A stretch of DNA of 64,000 bases from Bacilli bacterium (lineage in GTDB: Bacteria; Bacillota_I; Bacilli_A; ML615J-28; CAG-313): the NCBI GenBank assembly GCA_017937305.1, contig JAGBDV010000020.1, forward strand, positions 57,309-121,308, read 5' to 3'. Shown here in pieces: positions 6,001 through 62,083 of this stretch (the first letter of the stretch is position 1; every line of letters begins with the position of its first letter). The translations under genes and the position numbers were made by a program. A model generated the notes under the pieces. That model was not told the DNA's origin. It made no database searches and was given only the letters and a program-made list of their open reading frames with translations.

Positions 6001-7556
6001 ATAAAGGTTTAATCACAGCAGTTGCTGATGGTAAGACTACTATTACAATTACTTCTAAATCTGCATCTGGTGCAAAAGATTCATTCGAATTAGTTGTTTA
6101 CTCTCCAGATCATTTCGAAATTGCTTATGAAACAGAAAGTTATGTTGCAATTGATGGTACAGTTAACTTACTTGCTGAATACATCAAACGTGATGGTTCT
6201 AAAGAAGCTCTAACTTGGTCTTCTGTAACTCCTGAAATTGCTACAGTTGATGCTAATGGTAAAGTTACTGGTGTTAATGCTGGTGTTGCTACTATTCGTG
6301 TAGCTGTTACAAGCAATACTGAAATCTATCAAGATTTCGTTGTAACTGTTCTTGAAGCTGAAGTTTCTGAAGCAGTTCAACATGTTATTGATGCTCATGA
6401 AAGTAATGTATTTACTAGATACGATTTAGGTATTGGTGCTGGCTCTGCTCCTGCATACTATGCTGATATCTTTGGATCAATTAGTAAGATTCTTTACAAT
6501 CAACCATTAGTAATTGATGAACAATTCAAATCTGCTGGTGATGCTACTGGTAACTACTATGTAAATGAAGGTATCGAATTCGTTACTGTTCACTACACAG
6601 GTAATATGGCTCCTGGTTCAACAGCTAAAGCTAATGCTAATTACTTCGTTCAAGCTTCAAGTGGTGTATCTATCCACTATGTTACTGGTAATGATGGTGT
6701 TTATAGCTGCTTAAGCCACGATAAAGGTGCATGGCATGCTGGTGACTCTGGTGCTTACTCTACTGTTGGTGCATTCAAGTGGATGCCTACAGGTGTTATG
6801 TATGATGATTGTGATCTATTAAAAGTTAAATTCACTGCTTCTGATGACTTCTATTATGAAATCAATGGTAAGAAGACAACAATTCCACTACCTAAGACTT
6901 ATAATCATAAAGAAAGAAATACTGATCACATTTACAATGCTGATGGTACAATTTCTGCTCAACCTGATTATGATAACTGGGGTCAAACATTTGCTAATAG
7001 AACTCCTGAAAGCTTCTTCAATGATCAAGACTTCCCTATCACTGTTGTAGATGGTGAATACTACATGGGTACAACTTGGTGGAGTTATGGTCAAGTTTAC
7101 GAAGGACGTATCTGTGGTTCTGGTGGTAATAGAAACTCTATCGGTATCGAATCTGCAGTTAACCCTGAATCAGACTTATGGTTAACATGGCAAAAGACTG
7201 CACAATTAGTTGCTCAATTATGTGTTCAATATGACTTAGGTCTTGAAAGAATTAAAGGTCACCACTTCTTTGATGGTAAGGATTGTCCTCAACCATTATT
7301 AGAAAATGATCTTGAAATTTGGTGGGAATTCATCGAATTAGTAAGATATGAAATGGCTCTATTAACAACATTAAAAGATGCTGGATTCAAACTTACTGTT
7401 GATGAAAACTGTGCTTCATTCGTTGGTGAAAACGGACGTATTGAATCTCAACCTGAATTTGCTCAAGTTATCGAATATACAGTAGAAGTTACTGTTGGTG
7501 ATAAAGTTGAAACTATCACTCTTGCTTCATCTGTAAATGGTATTTACAGCAAATAA
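1..7556 (+). CDS. Giant surface protein, 5'-partial (open to window edge). Big_2 Ig-like domain at N-terminus; many Listeria-Bacteroides (Flg_new) repeats; two tandem right-handed parallel beta-helix (PbH1) modules (~2715-3680, ~3760-4790); two Big_2 domains (5860-6350); C-terminal Amidase_2 (MurNAc-L-Ala amidase/PGRP) domain (~6360-7310).
   Basis: The 60..7556 frame stays open upstream to position 3 (TVLSSALPEIVFTEYSPNM looks like Big_2). YxLNGG...GYxFxGW repeat units recur throughout. The YKTLA(D/E)A(I/L)AAAxxGDxIxLxAGxY beta-helix starts occur twice. The amidase region carries AWHAG, NSIGIE and HHF..GKDCP motifs. Confidence 0.8.
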   Translation, partial: VTVLSSALPEIVFTEYSPNMLKGASQTIGYKFNPIYTDAQVRWESANPDVAVVDENGKVTAVAVGEATIIAYATDGVDEKAFVLKLSVSESDFAIEYVLNGGVNSEANPAGYNTLNTPLELQPATKLGYNFLGWYADEELTQEAGKIAEGSTGDVKVYAKWEIVNYNINYDLDGGVNAEGNPATYTVEDEIVLGEPTKENHSFLGWVDAEGNTVTKIAKGSVGDVAVKATWKLDVFNISYDLNGGSFVTGYPYASHAELVADFVVDFNKHSGKTVAADGSDFFARSWMADGSSAGYKFLTSAEYGAKWSWLIKLINDGRVARGAAELQSTDGQAEARGEVHTFLNLTGTANTAGYGTDRTGLTFEEYAPKYLPCDPSIPAVVYQYAVGVETLLPLAQKADHEFIGWSVAKEETITTSANSNFWGNYANHIFLFKSANDAKAKFSFRAYIARQEDGSYVVTKIQQSGEVSAVEGDYTLCISDSYGKYAETKAFREAIQVGDIVSFDGDPSTGNTTISLVKIYDKISADQIGDLNFKALFAELRDDYELSYELDGGKLSDGAPKQYLCSTGLKLEMTASKPGYKFLGWSLSKGGEIIEEIPAGTRDPQTLYAIYEAETYKIEYDTNGGTFSVDSVAYIYDNYEAIVADFLADYSAKYGLSGLTAANFNSKSANYGLAAFWKDATLASKWAWLQEFMLTYNPNYSGLSYMKNASSAANYNKYWRANLAAFLQQGKVTSPLSMDFTGLDTEAWWAASVPTKIVTVAANPKYEYTVEELPFVIEVPMRDGVEFVGWCFNNKYRDEFLSLPAGTVGDIKLYAKWSDTEEVYETFAINYELDFGRIEGEYVNSYVETIGVASLPTPVKVGYTFLGWTLAADSSEYVTSIGTEVVGDVTLYAQWAEKESSMPKVIKVGAEEEYKTLADAIAAASKGDTIVLAAGEYAGATIDKALTIKGPNAGVNPNTATRGDEAILSGVLKISADNVTIDGIALTGAGKLKADTTQNISNLTFVNIYVYDSTVNVGNVSTVAPFELNVDGSNFVSDVLIANSKIITSNISNDRPMIVYATNIKNLTMDNNSFVGRRVNYNDAVKLGNGASVGVTGNLIITNNYFENYAQYLIWLQKFGAVNVLVENNTFLNNGQTAGSHCAIRFQAYTGAATDEVNCEMYYNTVDNSYLLLKVDAAPDGAKFVCNYNTVQNSKDTLIVKNATKATVTCDSNYWAFDSVTDAMFVNATHTNDLTDAESIPSKEESWLEGKLIVGADAAYKTLAEALAAAKEGDEIYLTAGTYDEAVTITVANLTIYGPNHGVAGTAERAAEAVLAQPLTVEAAGFTVDGVQFGAGCNVVVKANNATITNVHSVSTKFAKAGGTNRTAVVTTSGKVSNFELSNSFFNTGASSYLKGVFANDEAVTNALFKNNFFTHENTDNTSISDCIAMYNSAGVIEFIGNTFEWVTDDWCIMLGSTGCAADVINVIDNNFIGKTVDGSELYTCGIMLRCAPAGSKVNVIHNYFGTLAGTIISGRNSKAGAEYNIKYNVFENMTYRQDSSNIGSAAFNYEGNYYGKPVHSSATYCTDYGTVTDKAVCDELYVAWKVVQEIGTPEVYSNLSYELNGGTIAAGYDVKYLEGQKVALYGATKEGYKFLGWSLDAEGTKVYKEIQKDWTGDIKLYAQYAEIFDVEYDLDGGAAEGLVTSAVDGTKVELPTPEKYGHIFLGWTLEKGTEDYIKSVVVTADTKLYANWLEATFFYVDYELNGGSILYASRDALIADWLVDYNLVLGKSYASTADIATGNFADIDYHTFLDSKTVLNNGQTPREKWLWLAEYLYELSVRDVASNNCNVLGLRALINQTGYSGDAIYGVSYAFRAFLLGRTIRPNSSYTSVDHSVYENANGFWAKLSASEPKHYGYYEETVLPAANLENYKFAGWYKDAEFTGEPVTKVSHADDGLKLYAKFVEATPVTSVTIDNKFAEMKRFETYQLTWTVNPSDASIQQVAFASSNPEVASVDDKGLITAVADGKTTITITSKSASGAKDSFELVVYSPDHFEIAYETESYVAIDGTVNLLAEYIKRDGSKEALTWSSVTPEIATVDANGKVTGVNAGVATIRVAVTSNTEIYQDFVVTVLEAEVSEAVQHVIDAHESNVFTRYDLGIGAGSAPAYYADIFGSISKILYNQPLVIDEQFKSAGDATGNYYVNEGIEFVTVHYTGNMAPGSTAKANANYFVQASSGVSIHYVTGNDGVYSCLSHDKGAWHAGDSGAYSTVGAFKWMPTGVMYDDCDLLKVKFTASDDFYYEINGKKTTIPLPKTYNHKERNTDHIYNADGTISAQPDYDNWGQTFANRTPESFFNDQDFPITVVDGEYYMGTTWWSYGQVYEGRICGSGGNRNSIGIESAVNPESDLWLTWQKTAQLVAQLCVQYDLGLERIKGHHFFDGKDCPQPLLENDLEIWWEFIELVRYEMALLTTLKDAGFKLTVDENCASFVGENGRIESQPEFAQVIEYTVEVTVGDKVETITLASSVNGIYSK

Positions 7557-20245: not shown

Positions 20246-20812
20246 ATGTTTTATTTATTTTTAATGGGCTGTACTTATTATTCATATAATTTATATAAAA
20301 AATATTTTAAAATAGATTTTAAATGTATAGTTTGTTATTTAATTGTTAACTTAATAAGTATTATATATTATAAATTTAATAATAAGTTAGATTCAGTATT
20401 TTTTCATATAGTAATAATTCATTTATTATTATCGTTTATAATAGATATAAAAGAAATGTGGATAGCTGATTATACTATTATTAGTGTATTAATAATTAAT
20501 ATTATTAGAACTATTTTTAATTTTTATTATAATCATGTAACGATATATGAAGGAACTATTTTTATGTTTTTGTTTATTCTTATAGTCTTATTATCACAAT
20601 TAATATTAAAAAAAGAATTAATGGGTTTTGGGGATTTAAAACTATTTTTTGTATTGAGTTTTAATTATTCATTTGTCAATGCAATATGTTTATTAATGTG
20701 TTCGGCAGTAATAGGAATAATTTATTATTTTATATTTAATAAGAAAAATGAGTTTCCATTTGGACCAGCTATAATAATTGCTTATATAGCTATTGAAATA
20801 TTAAAAAGTTAG
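20246..20812 (+). CDS. A24-family prepilin peptidase-like membrane protein (peptidase domain only; TadV/ComC-like).
   Basis: Multi-TM protein with FIIDIKEMWI (first Asp), MGFGDLKLFFVL (the GGGDVKL-like second Asp) and C-terminal FPFGPAIIIAYIAI, as in PilD. Confidence 0.55.
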   Translation: MFYLFLMGCTYYSYNLYKKYFKIDFKCIVCYLIVNLISIIYYKFNNKLDSVFFHIVIIHLLLSFIIDIKEMWIADYTIISVLIINIIRTIFNFYYNHVTIYEGTIFMFLFILIVLLSQLILKKELMGFGDLKLFFVLSFNYSFVNAICLLMCSAVIGIIYYFIFNKKNEFPFGPAIIIAYIAIEILKS

Positions 20813-27911: not shown

Positions 27912-28616
27912 ATGGTGTTTAAAATTAGATTAATAGAAGAAAAAGATAATTTAGAAATAGAAAAAATTATTCGTGATTGTTTAATAGAATATGGAGTTAA
28001 TCATGAAGGTACCGCATGGCCCGATGAATTCTTATGTAGATTATCTTTTGTTTATAGTGAGCCTAAAACTGCTTATTATGTGGCAGTTGATGAAAATGAA
28101 AATATTGTTGGTGGATGTGGTGTTGGGAAAATTGAAGGAGTAGAAAACACTTGTGAACTACAAAAAATGTATTGTATAAAAAGTGTTAGAAATACCACTG
28201 TTTTAAAACAATTACTTGATGCATGCTTAAGTTTTGCGAAGAAATATTATAATTCTGTGTATTTAGAAATTCTTGAAAATAGGGATGATGAAAAGGAATT
28301 TTTTGAAAAAAATGGGTTTAAGAAAACTAATGAAAGACTTGGTGATACAGGAAATAATAATAATGCGTCTTATTTATTAAAATTTAAGACAGTAGGTTTT
28401 TTAGAAGAGTTTTTTGGAGAATTTTTTGTAGAATTAATTGGTATAATAATTTGTTTTGTTGCGGGGATTTTTATTTGTTCATTATTTCCTAAAAAATGTC
28501 AAGAAGAATTAGATATTGAAGGTATAATTGGAATAGGTGGCGGAGGCCTTTTAATTTTTGGATTATTATTAGGGGCAATTGTTTATTTATTTAAACGCAG
28601 AAAGGATAAAAAATAA
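27912..28616 (+). CDS. GNAT N-acetyltransferase with C-terminal TM anchor.
   Basis: GNAT motif A region (VGGCGVGK..). Two C-terminal TM helices. Confidence 0.55.
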   Translation: MVFKIRLIEEKDNLEIEKIIRDCLIEYGVNHEGTAWPDEFLCRLSFVYSEPKTAYYVAVDENENIVGGCGVGKIEGVENTCELQKMYCIKSVRNTTVLKQLLDACLSFAKKYYNSVYLEILENRDDEKEFFEKNGFKKTNERLGDTGNNNNASYLLKFKTVGFLEEFFGEFFVELIGIIICFVAGIFICSLFPKKCQEELDIEGIIGIGGGGLLIFGLLLGAIVYLFKRRKDKK

Positions 28617-30943
28617 TGAAAAAAATTATCGTTATGTTATTGATGATTTGTTCAGTATTTATGATTACAGGTTGTAAACCTAAAGAATATACTGTAACTT
28701 TAAAATTAGAAGATGGTACTGTATTTGAAGAACTAGTTGTTGAAGAAAAAGTAAGTGTTGATCTTAAAACTCCATCAAAAGAAGGTCATACATTTGCTGG
28801 ATGGTACGATGGTGATGTATTAGTAAATGGTAATGAAGGTTTTGAATCTGATACAGTTTTAACTGCTAAATTTAATATCAATTCATATACTTATAAGTTT
28901 ATTGTAGAAGGTACTATTGTAAAAGAAGAAACTCTTGAATATGGATCAACAATTCCATATCCAGAAGAACCTACAAAAGAGGCTACTGCGGAAAATTCTT
29001 ATGTATTTTCTAGATGGGATAATGATGCTACAACACTTTTAAAAGATGAAGTATTTAATGCAGTATTTGAAAGTAGTAAAAATTCTTATACTTATAAATT
29101 TGTAGATGATAATAATAAGGTTATTAAAGAAGAAACACTTGAATATGGTTCTAGTATTGTATATCCAGAAGATCCAGAAAAAGAAGCAACAGCTGAATAT
29201 ACGTATACATTTACTGGTTGGGATAATGATGCTACAGTATTAACTGAAAATATTGTTTTTAAAGCAACTTATTCTAAAGTAAAGAATCAATATACTTATA
29301 AATTCCTAGATGAAGATGGTTCATTATTAAAAGAAGAAACTGTTGATTATGGTACAATGCCTGTTGCACCAAGTGATCCTGTAAAAGAAGCAACTACTGA
29401 GTTTGAATATGAATTTATTGGATGGGATAAAACTATTTCTAAAGTTACAGGTAATGTAGAATATACTGCAGTGTATAAAGAAATCGAAATTAAGGAAGAA
29501 ATTACTTCACTTGATGGCCTTAAGATTTCTTTCTTAGGTGATAGTATTACTACATTCTATGCTGAAGGCTCAGAAATGAATAGCTATTATGGTGGTGAAA
29601 ACCAATTCTATTATCCTAGATATTCAACATCAATTAAAACTGTTGATTTAACTTGGTGGTATAAATTAATTAAAAATAACAATATGGTACTTGGCATTAA
29701 TAACTCATGGAGTGGTTCTCAAGCGTGTGGTACTGGTAATTCAGCTGGTCAATCTGATGCAAGAATTAATACTTTAAATGAAAATGGTAATCCTGATATC
29801 GTTATTGTATATCTTGGTACTAATGATATTGGAAGCAATAGAACAACAGCTGATTTAGATAAAGCTATTAATACAATTATTACTAAGATTAATGCTTTAT
29901 GCGATGCTCAAATTTTCTTAACTACACTTGGTTATACTACATATTCTGGTGGAAGTTATACTGAAGCTAAACGTATCGAATATAACGCTAAACTTCGAGA
30001 AATTGCAGCTGCAAAAGGCTGTGGAATTGTACCACTTGATGAATATGTTGTTGATGATAACTATATGATTTATTTAGGTGATGCACTTCACTACAATGCT
30101 AAAGGAGCAGAATTACTTTCTTTAATTGCTGAAAAGGCATTAAAAGAATATAATAATATTGAGTTTACTAAAGAAATTGTTGTAGAACATCAAGAACCAC
30201 TTCCTGAAGGTGTTGTTGGAATGATTACTGCAACAACTGATTCTAACTTCTGGGGAGTATATGCAACAGAAGTATTCTTAGCTCCTACTTCAATCACTAA
30301 TCCTACTTTTAGTTTACGTATTGAACTTACTAAGAATGCTGATAATGGTAAATATTATGTTATTAAAATCCAACAATCTGGCGAATCTACTCCTTATACT
30401 GGTGATTTAGTAATTATTATTTCTGATAGTCATAATGATGCAAAAGCTCTTAAGACACAAGTGCAAAATGTAACTGTGGGTTGTATTGCTGAATTTGATG
30501 AATCAATCGGTTTCCCTGTTGAAATTATTTTTAAAGAATGTGATGGTGATGCTCCTTCAGTGGAACCTGATGAACCAGAGGTTGAAGACAATCCTGCAGT
30601 TGAAGGTCAACTTCATGTAGGTGCATATAATAATGGTGTATGGGCAGAAAACATTTATACTAAAGCTGCTTTAATTTATTCAGATGATTATATAGATAAG
30701 AAGAGCACTTATATTAATTATTATATGATTAAATTAAATTATGATGATGCAACTTCTAAATATAAAATTGCTGAATTAAAAACTATTGATGTTGCGTGTG
30801 ACTTTACTGAAAGTTGTGATTTATATGTTTTAATTTATCGAGATTTTGATGGTAAAACATATTTTATTAACGCAAAAGTTGGTGGTTTAGTTACTATTAA
30901 TGGTGATTATACATCTGGTAGTTGTAATCTATTATTTGAATAA
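28616..30943 (+). CDS. Surface lipoprotein: 5 Flg_new repeats, an SGNH/GDSL hydrolase domain, and a C-terminal domain shared with the giant protein.
   Basis: Lipobox MITGC. YTYKF...F(S/T)GWD repeats. GDSITT (SGNH block I) and DALHYN (block V). C-terminal DSNFWGVYA...YYVIKIQQSGE is homologous to giant-protein residues encoded ~1270-1620. Confidence 0.75.
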   Translation: MKKIIVMLLMICSVFMITGCKPKEYTVTLKLEDGTVFEELVVEEKVSVDLKTPSKEGHTFAGWYDGDVLVNGNEGFESDTVLTAKFNINSYTYKFIVEGTIVKEETLEYGSTIPYPEEPTKEATAENSYVFSRWDNDATTLLKDEVFNAVFESSKNSYTYKFVDDNNKVIKEETLEYGSSIVYPEDPEKEATAEYTYTFTGWDNDATVLTENIVFKATYSKVKNQYTYKFLDEDGSLLKEETVDYGTMPVAPSDPVKEATTEFEYEFIGWDKTISKVTGNVEYTAVYKEIEIKEEITSLDGLKISFLGDSITTFYAEGSEMNSYYGGENQFYYPRYSTSIKTVDLTWWYKLIKNNNMVLGINNSWSGSQACGTGNSAGQSDARINTLNENGNPDIVIVYLGTNDIGSNRTTADLDKAINTIITKINALCDAQIFLTTLGYTTYSGGSYTEAKRIEYNAKLREIAAAKGCGIVPLDEYVVDDNYMIYLGDALHYNAKGAELLSLIAEKALKEYNNIEFTKEIVVEHQEPLPEGVVGMITATTDSNFWGVYATEVFLAPTSITNPTFSLRIELTKNADNGKYYVIKIQQSGESTPYTGDLVIIISDSHNDAKALKTQVQNVTVGCIAEFDESIGFPVEIIFKECDGDAPSVEPDEPEVEDNPAVEGQLHVGAYNNGVWAENIYTKAALIYSDDYIDKKSTYINYYMIKLNYDDATSKYKIAELKTIDVACDFTESCDLYVLIYRDFDGKTYFINAKVGGLVTINGDYTSGSCNLLFE

Positions 30944-30951
30944 AATAAATT

Positions 30952-30988
30952 GATGATTAAAGATTATCTTTAATCATCTTTTTTTTAT
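30952..30988 (+). terminator. Rho-independent terminator (11-bp stem).
   Basis: gatgattaaag-attat-ctttaatcatc followed by ttttttttt. Confidence 0.8.
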
Positions 30989-31072
30989 TTTTATAATTTT
31001 TATTTTTCTACAAATTATTAATAATAAATATAGTATAGTTTACTTGAGTATTTAAAGTTAAAGGTGCACATT

Positions 31073-31564
31073 ATGATTTATAAAAATAAAAATAATTATT
31101 ATAGTTTTATGCTATCTCTAATTATAATATTTTCTTTAGCAATTATTATTTTATTAATTAGTAATTTTAATAATTGTAAAAATAATAGAATAAGTTTTTA
31201 TGATGATAATGTAAAAATAATTAATTTTAAAGATTTAACACTTATACCAGGACATAAAACTGATTATACAGTATTAATAAATGGTAATTACAGTAAGAAT
31301 TATATACTTGAGTTATTTTTTTTAGAAAATAATAATAATCAAATTAATAATTATTTATATGTTGAATTATTAATTGATGATGAAGTTATTTATGAAAATA
31401 CGTTTAATGAAGCTAAAAGTGATACAATAAGGTTTTCAAAATTTATTAAAAGAAATGAACCATTAAAAATTAAAGTTGTTTATTATTTAGATAAAAATAC
31501 AGGAAATGAAATTCAAAATGAAGAAATTGATATTGAATTAAAAATTATAAAAAGGAGTAAATAA
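31073..31564 (+). CDS. Small N-terminally anchored protein, first gene of the sipW-tasA-like operon (TapA-like position; function unknown).
   Basis: N-terminal TM with no SipW-type AxF motif. Weak similarity to the TasA beta-strand region (LTLIPGHKTDYTVLINGNYS). Contains a T8 run at 31316-31323. Confidence 0.5.
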   Translation: MIYKNKNNYYSFMLSLIIIFSLAIIILLISNFNNCKNNRISFYDDNVKIINFKDLTLIPGHKTDYTVLINGNYSKNYILELFFLENNNNQINNYLYVELLIDDEVIYENTFNEAKSDTIRFSKFIKRNEPLKIKVVYYLDKNTGNEIQNEEIDIELKIIKRSK

Positions 31565-31566
31565 TC

Positions 31567-32271
31567 ATGATTAAAAAAATATTTAAAATTTTATCAGATA
31601 TATTATTATATTGTTTTATCTTTTTAGGACTTATTACAATTATTATTACTTTATCTTCTAAAAAAGATAGCGATGGAGCTACTAACATATTTAATTATCA
31701 ATTAAGATTAGTAATTACTGATTCTATGGATAAATGTAGTGAAACTAATGTGTCTAAATATAAAATAAAAAGTATTCCTAAAAATTCACTAGTATTAATT
31801 AAAAAAATTAAAGATAATGATTATAAAAAAATAAAAGAAGGAGATGTTTTAACTTTTAGATATTTATATACTGAACAAGTGACTATAACTCATCGTGTTA
31901 AATCAATTGTAGAAAAAGACACTGGTGGTTATATTATTGAACTTGTAGGTGATAATAAAACAGGTGAGTCAGAATTACTAGTGCAAACTATAGATACATC
32001 TATTGAAGAGAGTCCAAATTATATTATTGGAGAAGTTGTTTATACTTCAATAATTATTGGCTTTATTTTAAATATGTTAAAAAGTTCTTTAGGTATCGTT
32101 TTTATTATAATAATACCTTCATTTATAATAATATTACTTGAAGTAATTAAAATTATTAATATGACAATAATAGAAAAAAGAAAACTTGCAGAAAAAAAAG
32201 CAAATGAAAAAGAACAAGAAATACTAGAGTTAAAGAAAAAAATAAGAGAAATTGAAAGTAAAGGTATTTAA
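31567..32271 (+). CDS. sipW: Signal peptidase I, archaeal/ER (SipW) type, with C-terminal TM plus coiled-coil extension.
   Basis: VITDSMDK (Ser motif), GDVLTF, TITHRV (His motif), VGDNK. Sits between TasA-like genes. Confidence 0.75.
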   Translation: MIKKIFKILSDILLYCFIFLGLITIIITLSSKKDSDGATNIFNYQLRLVITDSMDKCSETNVSKYKIKSIPKNSLVLIKKIKDNDYKKIKEGDVLTFRYLYTEQVTITHRVKSIVEKDTGGYIIELVGDNKTGESELLVQTIDTSIEESPNYIIGEVVYTSIIIGFILNMLKSSLGIVFIIIIPSFIIILLEVIKIINMTIIEKRKLAEKKANEKEQEILELKKKIREIESKGI

Positions 32272-32332
32272 ATTGGTTGAAACATATAGTTTTATATGTA
32301 TCAATATAATATTTTAGAAAGGGGGATTTATT

Positions 32333-32968
32333 ATGAAAAATAAAATTAAAATATTATTTATTTCGTATGCAGTAATTTTACTTTGTACATGTTTTATTGT
32401 TACAGGGACTTATGCGCTATTTACAGATAGTGCTAAAGTTACTAACCATTTAAAAGCAGGTAATTTGGATATTAAATTAGAAAGAGTTAATTTAGAATAT
32501 CAAGTGTTAAATGAGGAAGGATATTTAGAAAAATATTCAAGTCAAGATAGGGTTAATTTTACTGGTATTGTTGGTAAAAATATTTTTGGCCTTGATTCAA
32601 AAGATATTTTAATAGTTCCAGGAAGTTATTTTGAAGCTACTTTAGAAATTAAAAATAATGGTAATGTAGCATTTGAATACTCTTGTGAAATTATTTTAAG
32701 TCAAGCGGTTAATGAACTTTCAAAACAAGTAGTTGTAACAATTACAGATTCTAATAATGCAGTATCTATTATGAATTTAAGTGATGTAAGTAATGGTTAT
32801 ACATTTAAACTTGGTGAAATGAATAATAATGTATTAACTGATTCATTTACTATTAGATTAGAATTTTTAGATGATGCAAAAAATAATTTAGAAGTAGATA
32901 ATAATTCAGCGAAAAATCAAGAATTATCATTTGATTTAGTAGTTGAAGCAGTTCAAAAAGAAAATTAA
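32333..32968 (+). CDS. TasA/camelysin (peptidase M73) family secreted protein with SipW-cognate signal peptide.
   Basis: Signal ...VTGTYALFTDSA; AGNLDI; PGSYFEATLEIKNNGN; C-terminal FDLVVEAVQ (TasA has SFEATQ). Confidence 0.75.
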   Translation: MKNKIKILFISYAVILLCTCFIVTGTYALFTDSAKVTNHLKAGNLDIKLERVNLEYQVLNEEGYLEKYSSQDRVNFTGIVGKNIFGLDSKDILIVPGSYFEATLEIKNNGNVAFEYSCEIILSQAVNELSKQVVVTITDSNNAVSIMNLSDVSNGYTFKLGEMNNNVLTDSFTIRLEFLDDAKNNLEVDNNSAKNQELSFDLVVEAVQKEN

Positions 32969-32999
32969 TTATTAATTAATAGTTAGGAAGGGAAAAGGT

Positions 33000-35129
33000 A
33001 TGAAAAAGAAAATCTTATTATCATCAATTCTTACTATTGCATTATGTTTAAGTTTAATTGCAGGAAGTACTTTTGCATTATTTACAAGTGAAAGTAAAGT
33101 AAATATTGCAGTTACTTCAGGTAAGGTTGAAATGCTTGCAAGTGTATCTGATTTAGAAACATGGTCACTTGAAGATGATAAGGCATTAGCTGGAAGAACG
33201 GATGGAACATTTACTCAAGGAGGAAATGTAACGTTTACTGATTCTGTTCTTTCAATTAATAAAATTATTCCAGGTGATAAGGTTAGTTTTTTAGTAACTG
33301 GTACAAATAATAGTAATGTAACTATAATGTATCGTACTGTTATTAAATGCTTATCTGGAGAAGTTTTAATGGATGGCATGAAAGTTACAATTGATGGAGA
33401 AACTTATTTTGGATTAAATAGTTATGTTACTAGTTGGGCTACTCTTACTGAAGGTAGTCATATGAAAGAATTAGAAGTTAGTGTTGAATTACCAGAAGAA
33501 GCAGGAAATATCTACCAAGATTTAAATGCAGAATTATTAGTTTTAGTTGAAGCTATTCAAGGTAATGCAACAGTTAAAGATGAAAAAGAAGTTGTTTTAG
33601 TAAACTTTTGGGATGGAACAAGTGATGAGGAAAGTTTACTTGAAAAAACTGATACAGTAAATAAAGAAGTAATAATTGAAACAGCTGAAGAATTAGCTGC
33701 ATTTAGAGATAATGTTAATAATGGAAATACATATAAAGATTATACTGTTAAATTAATTAGTGATATTGATTTAAATGGAGTAAACTGGACACCAATTGGC
33801 ACTAATGCTGATTCAAAAAATAAATTCCATGGTACATTTGATGGAAATAATAACACGATTTATAATTTAGTAGTTAATCAAAAAGAAGGTTATCATGCAG
33901 CAGGATTATTTGGTGCTTTAAATGGTACTGTTAAGAATTTAGTAATTGAAAATGCAGAAGTATCTAGTATTTCAACAGGATCTGCTACAGATAATGGTAC
34001 TGCAATTGTTGCAGGATCAATCTATATAAAAGGATCTATGGATAATGTAACTGTAAAAAATTCAAAAGTAAATGGTAACAGATATGTTGCAGCAATTAGT
34101 GGTTATGTATATGGTAATATTACAAATTGTACAGTAATTGGTTGTGATATTGTTGCTGAAATGGATAATTTAACAGGAAAATATGATAATGGTGATAAAG
34201 TAGGTGCTATTGCAGGTTATATGGCTGGTGAGGCTACTTATGTTTTAAATGGAAATAAAGTATTAAATTGTACATTATCAGCAGAAAGAGATGTAGCAGG
34301 TATTGTTGGTGTTGCATCAAATCTAAAAGAATTTGAAAATAATAGTGTTGATGATGTTACAATTAAATATCATTCAGTTAAGTCTTATAAAACAGCTTCT
34401 GAAATTGTATCAGAAAGAGTTGCAATTACCGTTCCATCATCAAATACATTTAATAATGTAGAAATTATTCTAGATGTAATGTCTATAAATAATGTAAAAG
34501 ACGCTTTAGATTCAGGCTTAGATGTAACTTTAATGCAAGATGTATCTGGTCAAGCTACTGATTCAAACGGGTATGGTGCAACAGGTGTTTACGTAAATGG
34601 TTCAACATTAGATGGTAATGGCAATACAATTAGTGTATCAAATGCTAATGGAACATGGGATTCTGCTGTTGGTACTAATGGTGGAACAATTAAAAATTTA
34701 AATATTGAAGGAGCATTTAGAGGGATCTTTACTGGTGGATTAAATAGTGATTTATATTTAGATAATGTATATGTAGATAAAGTATGTTATACATTTAATG
34801 CTGATGGTACTTATGCTGATACTTATTCATTAATTGTAACAAATTCAACATTTAATGGCTGGACAAGTTATAGTGATATTTTTAAAGAAGTATCATTTAC
34901 AAATTGTAATTTTGGTAAGGGTACTGGTGGATACACATATGCGTATATGAGACCATATAATGATTCAACATTTACAAGTTGTGTATTTGAAGAAAATTAT
35001 TTATTTGATTCAAGCAAAGCTACTAGTACTTTTGTTAATTGTTATGTAGGTAATACTTTAATTACTCAAGAAAATGTAACTGCTTTATTAGGTAGTAGTG
35101 CAAGTAATATTGTAGTGCTTAATAACTAA
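33000..35129 (+). CDS. Large secreted protein: SipW-cognate signal plus TasA-like N-terminal domain fused to GLUG-motif repeat (beta-helix-like) region.
   Basis: Signal ...AGSTFALFTSES. The first ~190 aa are TasA-like. Then HAAGLFGALNGTVKNLVIENAEV, VAAISGYVYGNITNCTV and VGAIAGYMAGEA (GLUG motifs). Confidence 0.7.
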   Translation: MKKKILLSSILTIALCLSLIAGSTFALFTSESKVNIAVTSGKVEMLASVSDLETWSLEDDKALAGRTDGTFTQGGNVTFTDSVLSINKIIPGDKVSFLVTGTNNSNVTIMYRTVIKCLSGEVLMDGMKVTIDGETYFGLNSYVTSWATLTEGSHMKELEVSVELPEEAGNIYQDLNAELLVLVEAIQGNATVKDEKEVVLVNFWDGTSDEESLLEKTDTVNKEVIIETAEELAAFRDNVNNGNTYKDYTVKLISDIDLNGVNWTPIGTNADSKNKFHGTFDGNNNTIYNLVVNQKEGYHAAGLFGALNGTVKNLVIENAEVSSISTGSATDNGTAIVAGSIYIKGSMDNVTVKNSKVNGNRYVAAISGYVYGNITNCTVIGCDIVAEMDNLTGKYDNGDKVGAIAGYMAGEATYVLNGNKVLNCTLSAERDVAGIVGVASNLKEFENNSVDDVTIKYHSVKSYKTASEIVSERVAITVPSSNTFNNVEIILDVMSINNVKDALDSGLDVTLMQDVSGQATDSNGYGATGVYVNGSTLDGNGNTISVSNANGTWDSAVGTNGGTIKNLNIEGAFRGIFTGGLNSDLYLDNVYVDKVCYTFNADGTYADTYSLIVTNSTFNGWTSYSDIFKEVSFTNCNFGKGTGGYTYAYMRPYNDSTFTSCVFEENYLFDSSKATSTFVNCYVGNTLITQENVTALLGSSASNIVVLNN

Positions 35130-35135
35130 TTTGCT

Positions 35136-35163
35136 GGAAGTTCTTTAAGAACTTCCTTTTTTA
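35136..35163 (+). terminator. Rho-independent terminator.
   Basis: ggaagttctt-taa-gaacttcc followed by tttttt. Confidence 0.8.
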
Positions 35164-35252
35164 TTTCAACATTTTTTATGAATTATGTTGTTTGATTGAT
35201 ATAAAAAATTTGATATAATATTAGTGTGAAATAAAAAGGAGGACATTAAAAT

Positions 35253-35609
35253 ATGAATACAGACAAAATTCTTGCAGAAAAGATTGCAAGTGAATATGTA
35301 AAAAAAGAAACTAGTAAAATTGTAGCATTAAAGAAATTAGATGCTAAAGCTAAACAAGGAGCGCAAATATTTGCTTATACATTTGGTATTGTTATGGCAC
35401 TATTATTTGGTACTGGCATGTGTCTTGCAATGGAAGAAATCAGTCTTTTTGCAGGATATGATATGTTAGTAGGTGTTATTTTTGGTTTAATTGGTATTGC
35501 TGGTATGGCAATTAATTATACTATTTATAAAAAAATCTTAAACTACGGAAAACAAAAATACGGAAACGATATAATTTTATTAGCTAAAGAAATAGCAGAG
35601 GAAAAATAA
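35253..35609 (+). CDS. Small two-TM membrane protein, unknown function.
   Basis: ORF with RBS AAGGAGG. Upstream of and co-oriented with the TetR gene. Confidence 0.4.
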   Translation: MNTDKILAEKIASEYVKKETSKIVALKKLDAKAKQGAQIFAYTFGIVMALLFGTGMCLAMEEISLFAGYDMLVGVIFGLIGIAGMAINYTIYKKILNYGKQKYGNDIILLAKEIAEEK

Positions 35610-35623
35610 ATTAAGGAGCGCTT

Positions 35624-36205
35624 ATGAATAAGAATGAGAGTAAGTATTTTAATACTGCATTGCTCATGGATGAAGCATTATTAATATTACTTGAAACTAA
35701 AGAGTTTGAATTCATAACAATTAAAGAAATTTGCTTAAAAGCTGGAGTAAATAGATCTACATTTTATCTACATTACCAAAATGTAAATGAACTATTAGTT
35801 GAAGCTATTGAAATGGTTAATAAAAGATTTTATGAATCTTTTAAAAATAAAAAATTTGATGTGTATAAAGCTTCAAAAGATGAATCATTCTTTATTACTT
35901 TAAATTATTTAATACCTTATTTAAATTTCGTAAAAGATAATAAGAGGATTTTTAAACTTATTCATGATAAACCAGAGATTTTTGGTAGTAAAAAACTTAC
36001 TGAGTATATGTATAAGAATCTTTTCAGTCCAATTCTTGATAAGTATAATGTTAAAGATGAAGATAAGGAATATGTATTTACATTTTTCACTCAAGGTACT
36101 CTTGCGATAGTACTTAGATGGGTAGGTAAAGGATGTATTGAAAATGTTGAAGATTTAGCTAATACAATCATTAGTTTAATTGGTTATGAAAATAAAAAGG
36201 ATTAA
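35624..36205 (+). CDS. TetR/AcrR family transcriptional regulator.
   Basis: N-terminal HTH TIKEICLKAGVNRSTFYLHYQN. Confidence 0.8.
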   Translation: MNKNESKYFNTALLMDEALLILLETKEFEFITIKEICLKAGVNRSTFYLHYQNVNELLVEAIEMVNKRFYESFKNKKFDVYKASKDESFFITLNYLIPYLNFVKDNKRIFKLIHDKPEIFGSKKLTEYMYKNLFSPILDKYNVKDEDKEYVFTFFTQGTLAIVLRWVGKGCIENVEDLANTIISLIGYENKKD

Positions 36206-36224
36206 CTTTCGTTAATCCTTTTGC
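36196..36224. terminator. Bidirectional hairpin between the TetR gene and the convergent small membrane-protein gene.
   Basis: aaaaggattaa-ctttcg-ttaatcctttt. Confidence 0.6.
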
Positions 36225-36447
36225 TTCATTTTAATATAGTATTTAATTAAATGGAATAAGTTAATAATTATTAAACAAAAATTCATTAATACAATAGGAT
36301 ATGCTCCAATAATTAATGAGTAAATTGCTGAAATCACTGAACCACATATGTTTACGATTCTTAATTTAATTAATGATGCCATCATCATTGAAATTATTAT
36401 TAGAATTGTACCAATATAACCAAATATTTCTAAATATATATATTCAT
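36212..36447 (-). pseudogene. Small 3-TM membrane protein gene (~77 aa) out of frame after its ATG because of an (AT)5 tract. Possible phase-variable or frameshifted gene.
   Basis: Minus strand: GGAGG at 36453-36457, ATG at 36447-36445, then (AT)5 at 36434-36443, then TAG. Removing one AT unit gives MNIYLEIFGYIGTILIIISMMMASLIKLRIVNICGSVISAIYSLIIGAYPIVLMNFCLIIINLFHLIKYYIKMKQKD*. Length 236 nt, which is 3n+2. Confidence 0.5.
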
Positions 36448-36664
36448 TTTAACCTCCTAAATAATTAATATATGGTAGTTAACCATTAGGTGGTTTGTAG
36501 AAACATTTGTCCATATCACAAATTTATACCATTCTAGATTAGTATTATATCAATTATTAATTAATTTTTCAAGTAAAATCATAAATAAATGATATTTGAT
36601 TAATTTGATTATTACATTATTATATGATATAATATGCTTATATAAATAAGAAAAGAGAGAAAAA

Positions 36665-38809
36665 ATGAAAAAAATTATTTGGTTAAGTATCATAGTATTT
36701 AGTTTACTCAGTTTTAGTTGTTCTAAAAAGCAATATGAAGTAAAATTTATAGGATTAAATGGTGAAATAATTGAGTCTTTTAAATTATTCAAAGATGATG
36801 AAGTTAATTATCCAGAGGCTCCTACTATTGAAGGCTATGATTTTATTAAATGGGATAAAGAAATTAAACATATAAGTGAAGATACAGTTATTACTGCTAT
36901 TTATGAAATTAAAACATATAATGTTAATTTCTATGATGAAAATGATGAGTTATTAGAAACTTTAAAAGTTTTATATAATTCTAGTGTTTCTTATAATCAT
37001 TTATTTAATGTTGAAGGTTATAGTTTTATTGGATGGGATAAGGATTTATCACATATTACGTGTGATTTAGATGTTAAACCTTTGTTTAGTAAGAAAACTT
37101 TTTCGGTTAAGTTTTTTGATGAAGCTGATATTTTAATTAAGGAAGAAATAGTTGAGTATGGTTCATCTGCAACACCTCCAAGTGATTTATCTAAAGAAGG
37201 ACACTCGTTTATTGGATGGGATACTGAGTTTACTAATGTACTTGCTAATCTTGTAGTGTATCCAGTGTTTGAACCACAAAAATTTACAGTTAATTTTTAT
37301 GATGAATCAGGAAAACTTTTAAAAGAAGAAATTGTTGATTATGGGACATCTGCAGAAGGAATATCTGCACCAAATAAAAATGGATATAAATTTGTTAGAT
37401 GGGATGAAGACATTAACAATATTACATCTAATTTAGATGTTTATCCAATTTATGAAGAACTAACTTTTACTGTTACTTTTGTTGATCAATATGGAGATGT
37501 TTTAAAAGTAGAAGAAGTTAAGTTTAAACAATCAGCTACTGCACCTGATGCTCCAGTGTTAGATTATTATAATTTTAATAAATGGGATTTAGATTTTAGT
37601 GAGGTTATGAATAATATGACAGTTAAAGCAATCTATACAAAAGAACAACAAACTTATAGTATTTCTAATGTTAATTACTGGTTGCAAATTTTATCATCTA
37701 AATATAATATAAATAAAACAATTTTAACTCCTAGTGAAATTAATAATTATAATGATAAAATTTTAAGTGATTATGCAAAAACTGAAGTTATGGATGTTTT
37801 AAGTATTACTGGTACTAAGACTCAAAGTTATGTTAAAAACTTAATTACTTCTTATGCAAATATTAATAAATATACAATATATAATGATTCTACAAAAGTA
37901 GCTTTAACAACTTCTGAAAAAGATACCATATTATCTAATCGTAATTTAACAAGCGTTCCTTCAACTGTTACTGTTAAATATGGTATAATATCTGATTTTG
38001 CGTGGCTAAGAAGTTATCCGACAAATCATTATTCTAATAATTATAGCATGGATAGATTCCAAGAAACATCTCTTAATGTTGGTGAAGGAGTTGCAATATA
38101 CCATGAAAGTTTAGATAAACAGTGGTATTTTGTACAAGCTGAAAACTATAATGGATGGATTGAAAAGAAGTATGTCGCAGAGTGTAGTTATGATGAATTA
38201 GAAGCGTTCTTAAAACCTCAAAATAGTTTGCTTGTCATTAGTGATTATGTAACATTAGAATCATCGCATGTTCGTATGGGACAAGTATTCCCGTTAGTAT
38301 CTAAAACTTTAGATTCATATACTATGAAGTTCCCTACAAGAAATAGTGATGGTAAACTTGTGTTAAAAGATTTAACTGTTGCAAAATCTAATGATTATCA
38401 TGAAGGGTATTTAGATTATACATATTACAATGTATTTAACCAAGCATTTAAACTACTTGGTATTGATTATAGCTGGGGTGATAAAGATAAACTTGGTCGT
38501 GACTGTTCATCAACAATGAATGCGATTTATAAGTGTTTTGGTTTTATGATGCCAAGAAATACTTCTAATCAAGTTGCTATTCCAACATATGGATCAAAGG
38601 TTAGTGGTTTAACTAATGCAACAGTTAGAAACTATAAACCAGGATCATTAATTTTTACATCTAGTCATGTAATGTTATATTTAGGTGAAAATGAAAGTGG
38701 TATAGCATATTTACTTCACAATACTACATCTGGAAATGGAGAATGTATTTTACAATCTTTAAATGACTACGGTGGAAGTAGAATTAATGGTGTATTAAAA
38801 CTTCAATAA
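36665..38809 (+). CDS. Surface lipoprotein: 7 Flg_new repeats, a middle domain, and C-terminal SH3b + NlpC/P60 peptidoglycan endopeptidase domain.
   Basis: Lipobox LSFSC. Repeats (F/V)xGWD. C-terminus carries GRDCSSTMN (catalytic Cys) and SHVMLYLG (His) of NlpC/P60, preceded by an SH3b-like YGIISDFAWLRSYP. Confidence 0.75.
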   Translation: MKKIIWLSIIVFSLLSFSCSKKQYEVKFIGLNGEIIESFKLFKDDEVNYPEAPTIEGYDFIKWDKEIKHISEDTVITAIYEIKTYNVNFYDENDELLETLKVLYNSSVSYNHLFNVEGYSFIGWDKDLSHITCDLDVKPLFSKKTFSVKFFDEADILIKEEIVEYGSSATPPSDLSKEGHSFIGWDTEFTNVLANLVVYPVFEPQKFTVNFYDESGKLLKEEIVDYGTSAEGISAPNKNGYKFVRWDEDINNITSNLDVYPIYEELTFTVTFVDQYGDVLKVEEVKFKQSATAPDAPVLDYYNFNKWDLDFSEVMNNMTVKAIYTKEQQTYSISNVNYWLQILSSKYNINKTILTPSEINNYNDKILSDYAKTEVMDVLSITGTKTQSYVKNLITSYANINKYTIYNDSTKVALTTSEKDTILSNRNLTSVPSTVTVKYGIISDFAWLRSYPTNHYSNNYSMDRFQETSLNVGEGVAIYHESLDKQWYFVQAENYNGWIEKKYVAECSYDELEAFLKPQNSLLVISDYVTLESSHVRMGQVFPLVSKTLDSYTMKFPTRNSDGKLVLKDLTVAKSNDYHEGYLDYTYYNVFNQAFKLLGIDYSWGDKDKLGRDCSSTMNAIYKCFGFMMPRNTSNQVAIPTYGSKVSGLTNATVRNYKPGSLIFTSSHVMLYLGENESGIAYLLHNTTSGNGECILQSLNDYGGSRINGVLKLQ

Positions 38810-57149: not shown

Positions 57150-57177
57150 AATTCAAATTTTTGAATTCTAGCTCTTA
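57141..57177. terminator. Bidirectional terminator (17-bp palindrome around an EcoRI-like core).
   Basis: aagagctagaattcaaa-ttt-ttgaattctagctctt. Confidence 0.8.
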
Positions 57178-58473
57178 TTCATTAAATAATAATGTAATTT
57201 CAAATGTAGTTTTTGTAACAGCATAGTCAAGTGTAATGTTATTTCTTTTTGCGAATAATTCAATAGATTTTGTACCAAAACCATGCTCTTCTTTATCATT
57301 TGTTGGTAAATTATTTGTATCAAAACTAATATTACCATCATATTTATTTTTAATTTGTAAAATTAAACGTCCATTATTGTTTAGGAAGATAAATGTAACA
57401 GCTCTATTGTTCTTAAGCTTAAGGGATGCATTAATTGCATTATCTAAACAGTTAGATATTACGACTACGATTTCATTAGATGGAATTGTAAGTAGTTCTT
57501 CGAAGTTATTAATTTTAGTCTTAAAATTAATATCATTATTAATACATTGTTGTTCATAGTATTCAAGTACTGAATTAATAAGTGGATCATTACAATATCT
57601 TTTTCGTTTTGTATTTTCAATAGAAACATTATATGAATTAATTAATTCTTGTGCTTGTTCTATTTCGCCATTATTAATAAGTGTTGAAATAGTAACTAAT
57701 ACATGTTTCATATCATGTCTTAAAATTCTAAGTTCATTATCACTTTGAGCTTTAAGTTCTGAAATTTCAATTATATTTTCTATTTGTTTATTTAAAATCT
57801 CTGTATCAAAATTATTAATTAATTCTTTTTGATAACTTTTTAAAAACATATAAAATCCAGTAATTGAAACTGTATATACGCTTAATAATGCAAGACTAAA
57901 GATATTAATTTTAAGTACATTTTGTGTTGTAGTACTTATAATATTTTGGTATAGGCCAATTTCAGCAAACATTGCAACACCATAAAGAAGAAGAAGCCAT
58001 AACATTTTAGGAAGTGATGATTCAACAATATTATGTAGTTTATTATAGAAGAAATTTAAATATATAGCTGCTAAAGGGAAACAAGTAACATAGATAATCC
58101 CTCTATATAATATAGCGTTATCAGCAAACTTTAGACCAACTGCTTCAATTAATACAACAAAATATGTAAGTAAAAAGGCATTAACTATTCCTGTAAATAA
58201 AGATAATCCTTTTCTTTTTCCAATTATAAATACTAATAGTGCTTCAGGTATAAAAATACCTAAAATATTCCAAATTAATACTTTTTCAAGTTTGAAAAAT
58301 TCAAATATGTATGAATTAATGATTAGTATTGCAAGAGTAATTGGAATAACAAGTAATAATGTTTTAATTTTAGAAAATCTACTACCTGATACAATTAGTA
58401 ATAATAACATACTAAATGCAGCAGTAATTAATGTTGGAATTAACTCAAATATCTGTGTCATATTATTCACCAA
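57175..58473 (-). CDS. Sensor histidine kinase, AgrC/HPK10-like (polytopic N-terminal sensor + GHKL ATPase).
   Basis: About six N-terminal TM helices. H-box LRHDMKHVL. N-box/G-box region NCLDNAINAS ... GFGTKS. Confidence 0.75.
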   Translation of the reverse strand: MVNNMTQIFELIPTLITAAFSMLLLLIVSGSRFSKIKTLLLVIPITLAILIINSYIFEFFKLEKVLIWNILGIFIPEALLVFIIGKRKGLSLFTGIVNAFLLTYFVVLIEAVGLKFADNAILYRGIIYVTCFPLAAIYLNFFYNKLHNIVESSLPKMLWLLLLYGVAMFAEIGLYQNIISTTTQNVLKINIFSLALLSVYTVSITGFYMFLKSYQKELINNFDTEILNKQIENIIEISELKAQSDNELRILRHDMKHVLVTISTLINNGEIEQAQELINSYNVSIENTKRKRYCNDPLINSVLEYYEQQCINNDINFKTKINNFEELLTIPSNEIVVVISNCLDNAINASLKLKNNRAVTFIFLNNNGRLILQIKNKYDGNISFDTNNLPTNDKEEHGFGTKSIELFAKRNNITLDYAVTKTTFEITLLFNE

Positions 58474-59194
58474 TTAAATACTTTATGTATTCTTTCTTAA
58501 TACTTGAAAAATTTCTTTTTGCAATAGGAACGACAAAACCATTTTTCATTATAAATGATCCATCTTCAATTGCTTTTACATGATTCATATTAACAATAAA
58601 TGAGGCATGACAACTAATAAAATTATAGTTTTCATAATTAAATGGAATAGAATCTAAAAACTTAGTTCTAAGTGCCGTAGATGTAATAGATTCACCAGTA
58701 ATTAAGTGAATTACAATACGACGATCTATTGATTCAATAAAACATACTTCATTTATTTCAATAGATAAAATATTAAGTGTTTGTGTCTTAAAATTAAATG
58801 TATTTTTAGTACGATAATTAAAATTAATTGATAAATCATCAAGTACTGCATTCATTTGTTCTTCTGCAATAGGTTTAATCAAATAATGGTACGCTTTAAC
58901 AGTAAAAGCATCTACTGCAAATTCAGAAGAAGTTGTTGTAAAAATTATTACAGCATCAGGAGACACTTCTCTTATTTTTCTAGCAGTTTCAATACCATTT
59001 ATTTGCATGATTACATCAAGAAAATAAATATCAAACCCTGTATTATTAGGAAGATTTATTAATCTAATTAAATTAGCAGGATTATCAAAACAACTAATAT
59101 CTACATTAACTTGTACTTTTTGATAGTATGAAGAAACTAACTTTTTAGTATTCTCAAGTTCTAATAAACTATCATCACATATAGCTATTCGCAT
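58463..59194 (-). CDS. Response regulator, LytTR DNA-binding family (AgrA/ComE-like).
   Basis: REC domain (IAICDDS..., DVIMQINGIE, IIFTT) plus C-terminal LytTR domain (FIESIDRRIVIHL...SCHASFIVNMNHV). Confidence 0.8.
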   Translation of the reverse strand: MRIAICDDSLLELENTKKLVSSYYQKVQVNVDISCFDNPANLIRLINLPNNTGFDIYFLDVIMQINGIETARKIREVSPDAVIIFTTTSSEFAVDAFTVKAYHYLIKPIAEEQMNAVLDDLSINFNYRTKNTFNFKTQTLNILSIEINEVCFIESIDRRIVIHLITGESITSTALRTKFLDSIPFNYENYNFISCHASFIVNMNHVKAIEDGSFIMKNGFVVPIAKRNFSSIKKEYIKYLIGE

Positions 59195-60247: not shown

Positions 60248-60285
60248 TAGTTATTTATAAAAATAATTTAGGAGGCTAGAAAATT

Positions 60286-61062: not shown

Positions 61063-61074
61063 TAACTTATAGTT

Positions 61075-62079: not shown

Positions 62080-62083
62080 TGTT

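Follow-up and report, generated by a model that had tools for sequence, protein, structure and literature searches.

Introduction

TasA fibres are, to our knowledge, a main model for Gram-positive biofilm matrices and are known almost only from Bacillus and Clostridium perfringens. In the TasA fibre the N-terminal strand of subunit n completes the sandwich of subunit n+1, a subunit's own strand is extended only once that subunit has been complemented, and the first strand is given by an accessory protein, for which TapA has been proposed (PMC9674648). The TapA fold is distinct from the TasA fold (PMC9245690). In C. perfringens the sipW operon contains bsaC, coding for a large (70-kDa) passenger protein, together with a non-polymerising paralogue; BsaA oligomers are membrane-anchored, and growth at the membrane before SipW cleavage has been proposed (PMC11580942). 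The archaeal protein AbpB has been proposed as both nucleator and adhesin (PMC9245690). Here we describe four adjacent genes in a 64,000-nucleotide stretch (the window) of contig JAGBDV010000020.1, from the Bacilli bacterium assembly GCA_017937305.1, which represents a gut organism. We consider it reasonably probable that these genes encode a SipW/TasA-type extracellular fibre system made from three paralogous TasA-fold proteins. The genes and their products, named P1 to P4, are as follows (aa, amino acids):

31073-31564 (+): P1 (gene 1), 163-aa membrane-anchored TasA-fold paralogue with a transmembrane (TM) helix at residues 11-29
31567-32271 (+): P2 (gene 2), 234-aa signal peptidase of SipW type (ER/archaeal, S26B-like)
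32333-32968 (+): P3 (gene 3), 211-aa TasA-like putative major subunit
33000-35129 (+): P4 (gene 4), 709-aa fusion of a TasA-like N-domain (P4N) to a beta-helix

Operon organization

All four open reading frames (ORFs) listed in the first-pass annotation were present at its positions and sizes, co-directional and spanning 31073-35129 (+). The P1 ORF reads 166 aa from a GTG at 31064 and 163 aa from an ATG at 31073; the latter is the start annotated by NCBI (MBP3504471.1) and is likely the true one. P2 starts 3 nt past the P1 stop codon. Two hairpins resembling intrinsic terminators flank the genes:

30952-30978 (+): upstream hairpin, with a T-run after a 12-bp stem; it ends the preceding lipoprotein gene and forms the 5' boundary of the unit
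35136-35156 (+): downstream hairpin, 9-bp stem followed by a T-run, closing the four-gene unit

Four hairpins of this kind were seen in the region against 0.4 expected in shuffled sequence, none of them within the unit. Because each gene is preceded by a Shine-Dalgarno-like sequence, hairpins flank the set with none inside it, and the G+C content of the unit equals that of the remainder of the window, the four genes are best read as one transcription unit. A promoter scan of the region was uninformative (43 sites against 47.7 expected in such AT-rich DNA) and no promoter is claimed.

The motifs GTYALFTDSA, AGNLDI, PGSYFEATLEIKNNG and GLFGALNGTVKNLVIENAEV were all confirmed in the window's proteins, which are deposited as hypothetical; IMG tags P3 with the old name of TIGR04088. 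This model of the SipW-cognate signal, with a cutoff of 19 bits, was passed by both P3 (24.0 bits) and P4 (20.6 bits). The ORFs, the motifs and these scores bore out the first-pass proposal of a SipW/TasA-type operon in which a SipW-type peptidase stands beside a TasA-like protein and a TasA-N fusion. With both downstream genes passing the model and the same gene set recurring in seven other loci, the arrangement is not a chance one.

TasA homology of P3 and P4

In P3 the signal occupies residues 1-28, with predicted cleavage at A28/L29, followed by a putative donor strand (29-47) and a jelly-roll (47-208). The corresponding parts of P4 are:

33000-33077 (+): P4 signal peptide of the SipW-cognate type (TIGR04088), residues 1-26, predicted cleavage A26/L27, aligning with the TasA signal region
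33078-33560 (+): P4 TasA-like N-domain, with a putative donor strand at residues 27-45, where the predicted local distance difference test (pLDDT) is low, and a beta-sandwich at 45-187

The Pfam family PF12389 (Peptidase_M73) matched P3 at 22.9 bits (cutoff 22.5) over residues 16-50, in the signal region, and P4 at 15.9 bits, below the cutoff; the mature P4 N-domain by itself gave no Peptidase_M73 match in the Pfam search. PF12389 was detected in roughly half the P3 homologues and in 8 of 19 P4 orthologues. Homology was then visible in profile comparisons with hhalign, for which the B. subtilis TasA query was checked and found 100% identical to 8aur_A over residues 28-261. The 36-member P3 family aligned to TasA (94.5%, E 8e-8) across 172 columns (1-208 against 1-233), from the signal through the C-terminal strand. 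The P4N family aligned to TasA at 95.1% (E 3e-8) and to the P3 family at 99.8% (E 6e-29). The TasA cleavage site A27/A28 lies opposite A28/L29 in P3 and A26/L27 in P4, and Phe29 and Phe39 of the TasA donor strand correspond to F30 and L40 in P3. Of the TasA sequence, P3 and P4N both retain the region of the donor strand, the PGD strand and, at the C-terminal end, the N..Q...A.Q strand.

The AlphaFold2 model of P3 (pLDDT 82.8) had a single PDB match at E<=1e-3, the cryo-EM TasA fibre 8aur_A (E 3.5e-4, prob 1.00, TMq 0.43). Fold evidence for P4N was weaker, with the archaeal AbpA filament (7ueg) matching at prob 0.85 and E 0.075. The putative donor-strand segments are the low-pLDDT parts of both models. 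Taken together, the profile alignments showed TasA homology of P3 and P4N that spans the whole predicted jelly-roll domain, and not the signal alone. The first-pass identification of the 211-aa protein as a TasA homologue therefore held up on TIGR04088 and on hhalign, with a marginal Peptidase_M73 match confined to the signal region, as did the description of P4 as a SipW-cognate signal followed by a TasA-like N-domain.

The same annotation had paired TasA with camelysin, and the narrow PF12389 score could be taken to mean that P3 is a camelysin-type (Peptidase_M73) metalloprotease. This is very improbable: the match is limited to the signal, P3 has one His and no HExxH motif, and the family name likely misidentifies CalY as a peptidase (PMC11580942). 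On the lack of HExxH and the single His, we rejected the protease assignment.

P1, the gene 1 product

Gene 1 had been described as tapA-like, which stood for the gene position and not for the protein. P1 gave no match in Pfam, NCBIfam or the PDB, and the P1 family profile likewise found neither TasA nor TapA in the PDB. A word-based search returned close relatives only (at least 84% identity), and an exhaustive phmmer search returned 182 clusters with end-to-end matches, nearly all of them 155-175 aa long (~165 aa). By hhalign the P1 family matched the P3 family at 98.2% (E 2.8e-14), over the mature sandwich only, and a 60-member P1 alignment matched the P4N family at 97.2% (E 3e-11, 155 columns). 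A strongly hydrophobic N-terminal segment (TM helix) was present in 140 of the 142 P1-family representatives; none of the 142 had the cleavage motif T-[FWY]-A-x-F-[TSN], and P1 gave no TIGR04088 match. Between the TM helix and the first strand lie only ~6-8 unconserved polar residues.

By these family-level comparisons P1 is a TasA-fold paralogue that has a TM helix at its N-terminus and lacks a SipW-cognate motif, and its membrane anchor is apparently uncleaved. As the motif is missing and the linker from TM helix to strand is short, P1 amounts to an acceptor sandwich without a donor segment or a recognisable SipW site. The candidate identity of P1 as a TapA homologue was rejected, given no family or PDB match, the TasA-like homology, the absence of a cognate signal and the absence of an N-terminal extension; because the TapA fold differs from that of TasA (PMC9245690), P1 resembles TapA only in where its gene lies. 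Seven loci were fetched through distant P1-family members to sidestep the bias of a P4-based search, and in all seven a SipW-type gene lay 2-26 nt downstream of the P1-family gene.

The signal peptidase P2

P2 aligned over its full length with the NCBIfam SipW equivalog NF046067 (E 2e-17, 63.4 bits), short of the 190-bit cutoff, and scored 31.7 bits against the archaeal-type signal peptidase model TIGR02228 (cutoff 51.85). Pfam was empty for P2, with no S24/S26 match at E<=1. In an alignment of 15 homologues from related loci, Ser53, Met54 and His109 were invariant. The catalytic Ser53 lies in SDSM (box B, S-x-S-M) and His109, the sole histidine of P2, in THR (box D, T-H-R), so that the pair is not a Ser/Lys dyad. 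The P2 family profile matched human SEC11A (7p2p, E 8e-13) and SEC11C (E ~1e-12), with the SGSME and VHRV boxes aligned. Hydrophobic TM segments occur at the N-terminus and at residues 153-194, and are followed by a charged, Lys/Glu-rich, coiled-coil-like tail. The P2 gene adjoins genes with SipW-cognate signals, P3 and P4 lying directly downstream, and the same adjacency was found in more than 20 related loci. Judged by its motifs and profile matches, P2 is a divergent, SipW-like Ser/His signal peptidase of the ER/archaeal type and is not an equivalog of B. subtilis SipW, since the alignment is full-length and significant but falls below the curated cutoffs.

The alignment of SipW homologues splits into two subtypes. 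One, to which P2 belongs, is marked by a GDN box and by ~14 extra residues behind the Ser box; in the other these residues are missing and GTTT takes the place of GDN, so the usual Asp is lacking.

Passenger domains of P4

The AlphaFold model of P4 was confident (pLDDT 91.3), with a signal helix at residues 1-20, a disordered stretch at 22-39 and the beta-sandwich at 45-187, followed by two beta-solenoid domains:

33672-34469 (+): GLUG-type right-handed beta-helix, residues ~225-490 (~265 aa), pLDDT >90, with ~five GLUG-like turns at 300-455
34542-35129 (+): C-terminal beta-solenoid, residues 515-709 and the stop codon, a separate conserved module

The top Foldseek match of P4 was 3n6z, the GLUG beta-helix of Bacteroides ovatus BACOVA_03286 (E 3.7e-5, prob 1.00, TMt 0.50, 327 columns), and the G. 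haemolysans IgA1 protease 7uvk also matched the fold (prob 0.96); the residue span of ~225-490 for both matches is an estimate of ours. Full-length P4 gave no match to Pfam GLUG (PF07581, gathering cutoff 20.5 bits) at E<=1; the beta-helix segment scored 13.8 bits and the isolated repeat 361-388 reached 19.7 bits, the best value found and still under the cutoff. GLUG matched 10 of 19 P4 orthologues at E<=0.01 (best E 1.3e-6). The first-pass figure of ~500 aa of GLUG repeats was right as to a GLUG-type beta-helix but overstated its extent, because the ~five turns are confined to 300-455, the window protein is below the Pfam cutoff and the last ~200 residues form another domain.

For the C-terminal module Pfam yielded nothing beyond pentapeptide-repeat noise under the threshold. 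Proteins of Clostridia, Negativicutes and Bacteroidales that have no TasA domain share the C-terminal region of P4 (starting at ~200 or ~490 according to the locus) at 40-62% identity. The Bacteroidales with large proteins of this kind, also without a TasA-like domain (~33-48% identity), were Alistipes, Rikenellaceae, Muribaculaceae, Paludibacteraceae and Barnesiella, a distribution that points to a surface module passed between phyla in the guts of animals. The loci in this comparison were L004, L008, L011, L013, L018, L020, L026, L029, L032, L037, L042, L046, L047 and L050, and as they were retrieved through a motif inside it, its prevalence is partly by construction (ascertainment bias).

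No LPXTG motif and no C-terminal TM segment was found in P3 or P4, so their retention must go through the TasA-like domain; P4 also lacks HExxH and a protease domain. An alternative is that no fibre is made: P2 would be a dedicated peptidase, P4 a secreted or surface glycan-active beta-helix lyase or hydrolase with its sandwich as a binding or spacer domain, and P3 and P1 non-polymerising proteins. Foldseek did return beta-helix enzymes for P4 (GH87 at E 4.6e-5, a fucoidan lyase, a PL6 lyase and phage tailspikes), the occurrence of its C-terminal region in Bacteroidales proteins without a TasA domain implies that the region works independently of a fibre, and BsaB of C. perfringens forms no long oligomers (PMC11580942). 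The TM-scores of these glycanase, lyase and tailspike matches were, however, very low (0.12-0.20), and the best compact match was the non-catalytic GLUG domain 3n6z. The alternative also leaves aside the TasA donor region, PGD strand and C-terminal strand retained in P3 and P4N, and unrelated secreted proteins would not explain three co-conserved TasA-fold paralogues of which one lacks exactly the donor strand. We regard it as unlikely.

Proposed fibre assembly

In the fibre system that we favour, P2 would cleave P3 after A28 and P4 after A26, freeing in each an N-terminal strand that would insert into the sandwich of the next subunit by donor-strand exchange, by analogy with TasA and BsaA. 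P3 would polymerise as the shaft. P4 would enter the fibre by its TasA-like handle and display the beta-helix as an adhesin or ligand-binding head; it would probably be the first, tip subunit, since new subunits emerge at the membrane, which would leave a nucleating P4 at the distal end of the fibre. P1, which could accept but not donate a strand and which keeps its signal-anchor, would accept the last strand, terminate the fibre and tether it to the cytoplasmic membrane.

The same fibre could be built with other roles for two of its proteins. P1 might be a membrane-bound chaperone or nucleator (TapA- or CapP-like) that holds or primes subunits at SipW, and P4 might co-polymerise along the shaft or homopolymerise. 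P4 combines a donor strand with an acceptor sandwich; loci L007, L021, L033 and L045 hold two or more TasA-N fusions in tandem, as would suit lateral decoration or more than one type of fibre; the P1 and SipW genes, closely paired and often overlapping, would also suit an assembly factor working with the peptidase; and TapA is described as a chaperone or nucleator in B. subtilis (PMC10151520; PMC9674648). P1, however, has no donatable N-terminal extension and could not nucleate in the manner proposed for TapA, and it keeps an entire acceptor sandwich. These other roles are possible but doubtful.

Several observations weigh against the fibre system as we have set it out. PDB searches by sequence and by profile with P3, P4 and the P3 family profile gave no TasA match for the mature domains, and the Peptidase_M73 match of P3 is confined to the signal region, so the signal match alone is insufficient for homology of the mature domain. 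The Foldseek TM-score of P3 to 8aur is modest. The direct hhalign comparison of P1 with TasA was not significant, making the link transitive through P3 and P4N, and P1 may be cleaved at a non-canonical site. Polymerisation, the cleavage sites and the subunit order are predictions from sequences and models, and with both a donor strand and an acceptor domain in P4, nothing forces it into the tip position.

A more far-reaching interpretation, which we put forward tentatively, is that the locus encodes a complete pilus-like organelle with tip, shaft and anchor wholly of TasA-fold paralogues. The uncleaved, donor-less P1 family would terminate and tether the fibre, and TasA-N would serve as a plug-in handle for interchangeable passengers (GLUG beta-helices and others) in gut Firmicutes and Mollicute-related Bacilli.

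Conservation and host

Related loci, numbered with the prefix L, showed the cassette to be conserved, as judged from gene content, across many gut Firmicutes and widespread in gut Clostridia and metagenomes. The four-gene set recurred in L002, L003, L012, L021, L025, L069 and L070. The two closest genome matches, both from metagenome-assembled genomes (MAGs) labelled 'Bacilli bacterium', were L001 (70% identity), a 3.1-kb contig showing only the P3-like and P4 genes, and L002 (61% identity), with the same gene order. L003, from an Anaeroplasmataceae (Mollicutes) MAG, had the set in permuted order, and L012 and L021 (Clostridia/Oscillospiraceae MAGs) had the order of the window, as did L025, where the large TasA-N protein ended in a different C-terminal domain. 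Among the loci sampled through P1, all three contigs that were long enough continued with a P3-like gene, followed in the two that reach further, L069 and L070, by a 730-806-aa TasA-N fusion. P4 had more than 1,387 database relatives, many pairing PF12389 with GLUG, Beta_helix, Peptidase_M26_N (PF05342), LRR_5 or other domains.

Larger clostridial loci held two SipW paralogues and up to eight TasA-like genes. These loci were L017, L024, L030, L038, L043 and L045; several of their TasA-N fusions had different C-terminal domains, and a block of ~190-, ~220-, ~215- and ~310-aa TasA-like genes recurred among them.

The first-pass annotation had called a TasA fibre system unexpected in a possibly Mollicute-like organism. 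This was upheld only weakly: as many gut Clostridia and an Anaeroplasmataceae MAG also have the cassette, its presence in this host is only mildly surprising, and PF12389 was already known as widespread in Firmicutes (PMC9245690). Species that have peptidoglycan occur together with species that lack it in RF39, RFN20 and ML615J-28, orders of Bacilli with reduced genomes (PMC10868615). The window encodes peptidoglycan-directed enzymes (Amidase_2, NlpC/P60), and all of its long ORFs read through under the standard code.

Neighbouring loci

An apparent second, different SipW-type locus lies at 59480-63883 (+) with 57175-59194 (-). It begins with two paralogous secreted proteins of 255 and 258 aa (25% identity, E 1e-11; no family match), with the signals ...GFASWVISS and ...GFAAWVMST, which were not detectably TasA-like by hhalign (0.6%). 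There follow a 334-aa SipW-type peptidase, extended at its N-terminus and ending in a long tail (NF046067, E 1.7e-11; both Ser and His retained), and a 607-aa protein with TM segments and a P-loop; a LytTR response regulator and a GHKL kinase are divergently transcribed.

At 20246-20812 (+) the window encodes a 188-aa type IV prepilin leader peptidase (Peptidase_A24, E 2e-11), and type IV pilin-like or pseudopilin proteins are probably among the products of this organism too. In C. perfringens the export of BsaC and BsaA depends on type IV pilus proteins (PMC11580942).

The operon is flanked at 28616-30943 (+) and 36665-38809 (+) by genes for large proteins with lipoprotein-like signals (a Cys after the hydrophobic segment) and Listeria-Bacteroides (Flg_new) repeats, one with an SGNH/GDSL hydrolase domain and the other with SH3_6 and an NlpC/P60 peptidoglycan peptidase; in L002 this flanking pair is not conserved. 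A giant 2,498-aa surface protein at 60-7556 (+) combines Flg_new repeats with Big_2 and an N-acetylmuramoyl-L-alanine amidase domain. Just past the operon terminator is a promoter-like site at 35192-35219 (TTGATT-16-TATAAT, extended -10). Next come, at 35253-36205 (+), genes for a 118-aa protein with two TM segments (no family match) and a TetR-family regulator, which adjoin the operon only in contigs of the same species and not in L002. A purine riboswitch at 36456-36551 (-) (Rfam RF00167, 54 bits; gathering threshold 37) lies upstream of a small membrane-protein gene at 36212-36388 (-), whose product in identical contigs is annotated as a 77-aa member of the Imp-YgjV family (PF10688).

Significance

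The locus is a little-studied variant of a well-known biofilm-fibre system, and its anchored donor-less paralogue and TasA display handle are not described in the literature searched, yet widespread in metagenomes. Literature searches of incomplete coverage, and so weak as evidence, found no description of TasA::GLUG fusions, of a P1-type anchor or of SipW in Mollicutes. The cassette and its relatives in uncultured gut bacteria suggest testable answers on how fibres are anchored and whether they carry adhesins. If the fibre system is as proposed, hundreds to thousands of surface proteins now called 'hypothetical' in gut Clostridia and reduced-genome Bacilli would gain a role, and the system would show how thin-walled or wall-less bacteria could hold a fibre on the cell. 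The full organelle, if it exists, would add to sortase and type IV pili a third way for monoderm or wall-less bacteria to carry anchored adhesive pili.

Comparison with known systems

The locus resembles the B. subtilis tapA-sipW-tasA operon (8aur/5of1) in that a dedicated SipW-type peptidase adjoins TasA-fold proteins with the cognate signal. Features conserved between the two are the region of cleavage and donor strand (G-T-[WYF]-A / x-F-[NT]-D), the PGD strand and, at the C-terminus, the Q...A.Q strand, and the TasA fibre is the best PDB match of the P3 model. Identity to TasA is only about 20-22% and was seen by profiles only; gene 1 encodes a truncated membrane-anchored TasA paralogue in place of TapA, which has another fold (PMC9245690); a TasA-N::beta-helix fusion gene is added; and P2 is far under the SipW equivalog cutoff (63 against 190 bits).

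The sipW-bsaA-bsaB-bsaC operon of C. perfringens likewise unites SipW, a major TasA-like polymer subunit, a non-polymerising TasA-like paralogue and a protein of ~70 kDa that bears a signal and an interaction domain in a single operon. The gene order differs, and the passenger there is VWA, whereas that of the window is a GLUG-type beta-helix. P3 reached 16 bits, in the signal region only, against the 60-bit cutoff of the BsaA family TIGR04090, and an uncleaved signal-anchor of the P1 type is not described for BsaB.

Archaeal AbpA/AbpB (7ueg, among the P4 fold matches noted above) also pair a TasA-homologous donor-strand-exchange filament with a multi-domain accessory protein, the proposed nucleator and adhesin (PMC9245690). 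Their locus has no dedicated SipW gene, and the first domain of AbpB is TapA-like where that of P4 is TasA-like.

Residues ~225-490 of P4 share the fold of the GLUG beta-helices 3n6z and the N-domain of the M26 IgA1 protease 7uvk, the Pfam GLUG model is found in just over half of the P4 orthologues (10/19), and PF05342 co-occurs in some relatives. Unlike the GLUG and M26 proteins, P4 has no protease domain or HExxH, lies just below the GLUG cutoff, and carries its helix on a TasA-like domain with a SipW signal.

Chaperone-usher and sortase pili are a functional analogy only: the window system has no chaperone, usher or sortase, its proteins are unrelated to theirs and the site of assembly is different. 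The proposed layout of tip adhesin, shaft and terminator or anchor is nevertheless like theirs, and chaperone-usher pili are also assembled by donor-strand exchange, with a subunit missing one element fixing the end of the fibre.

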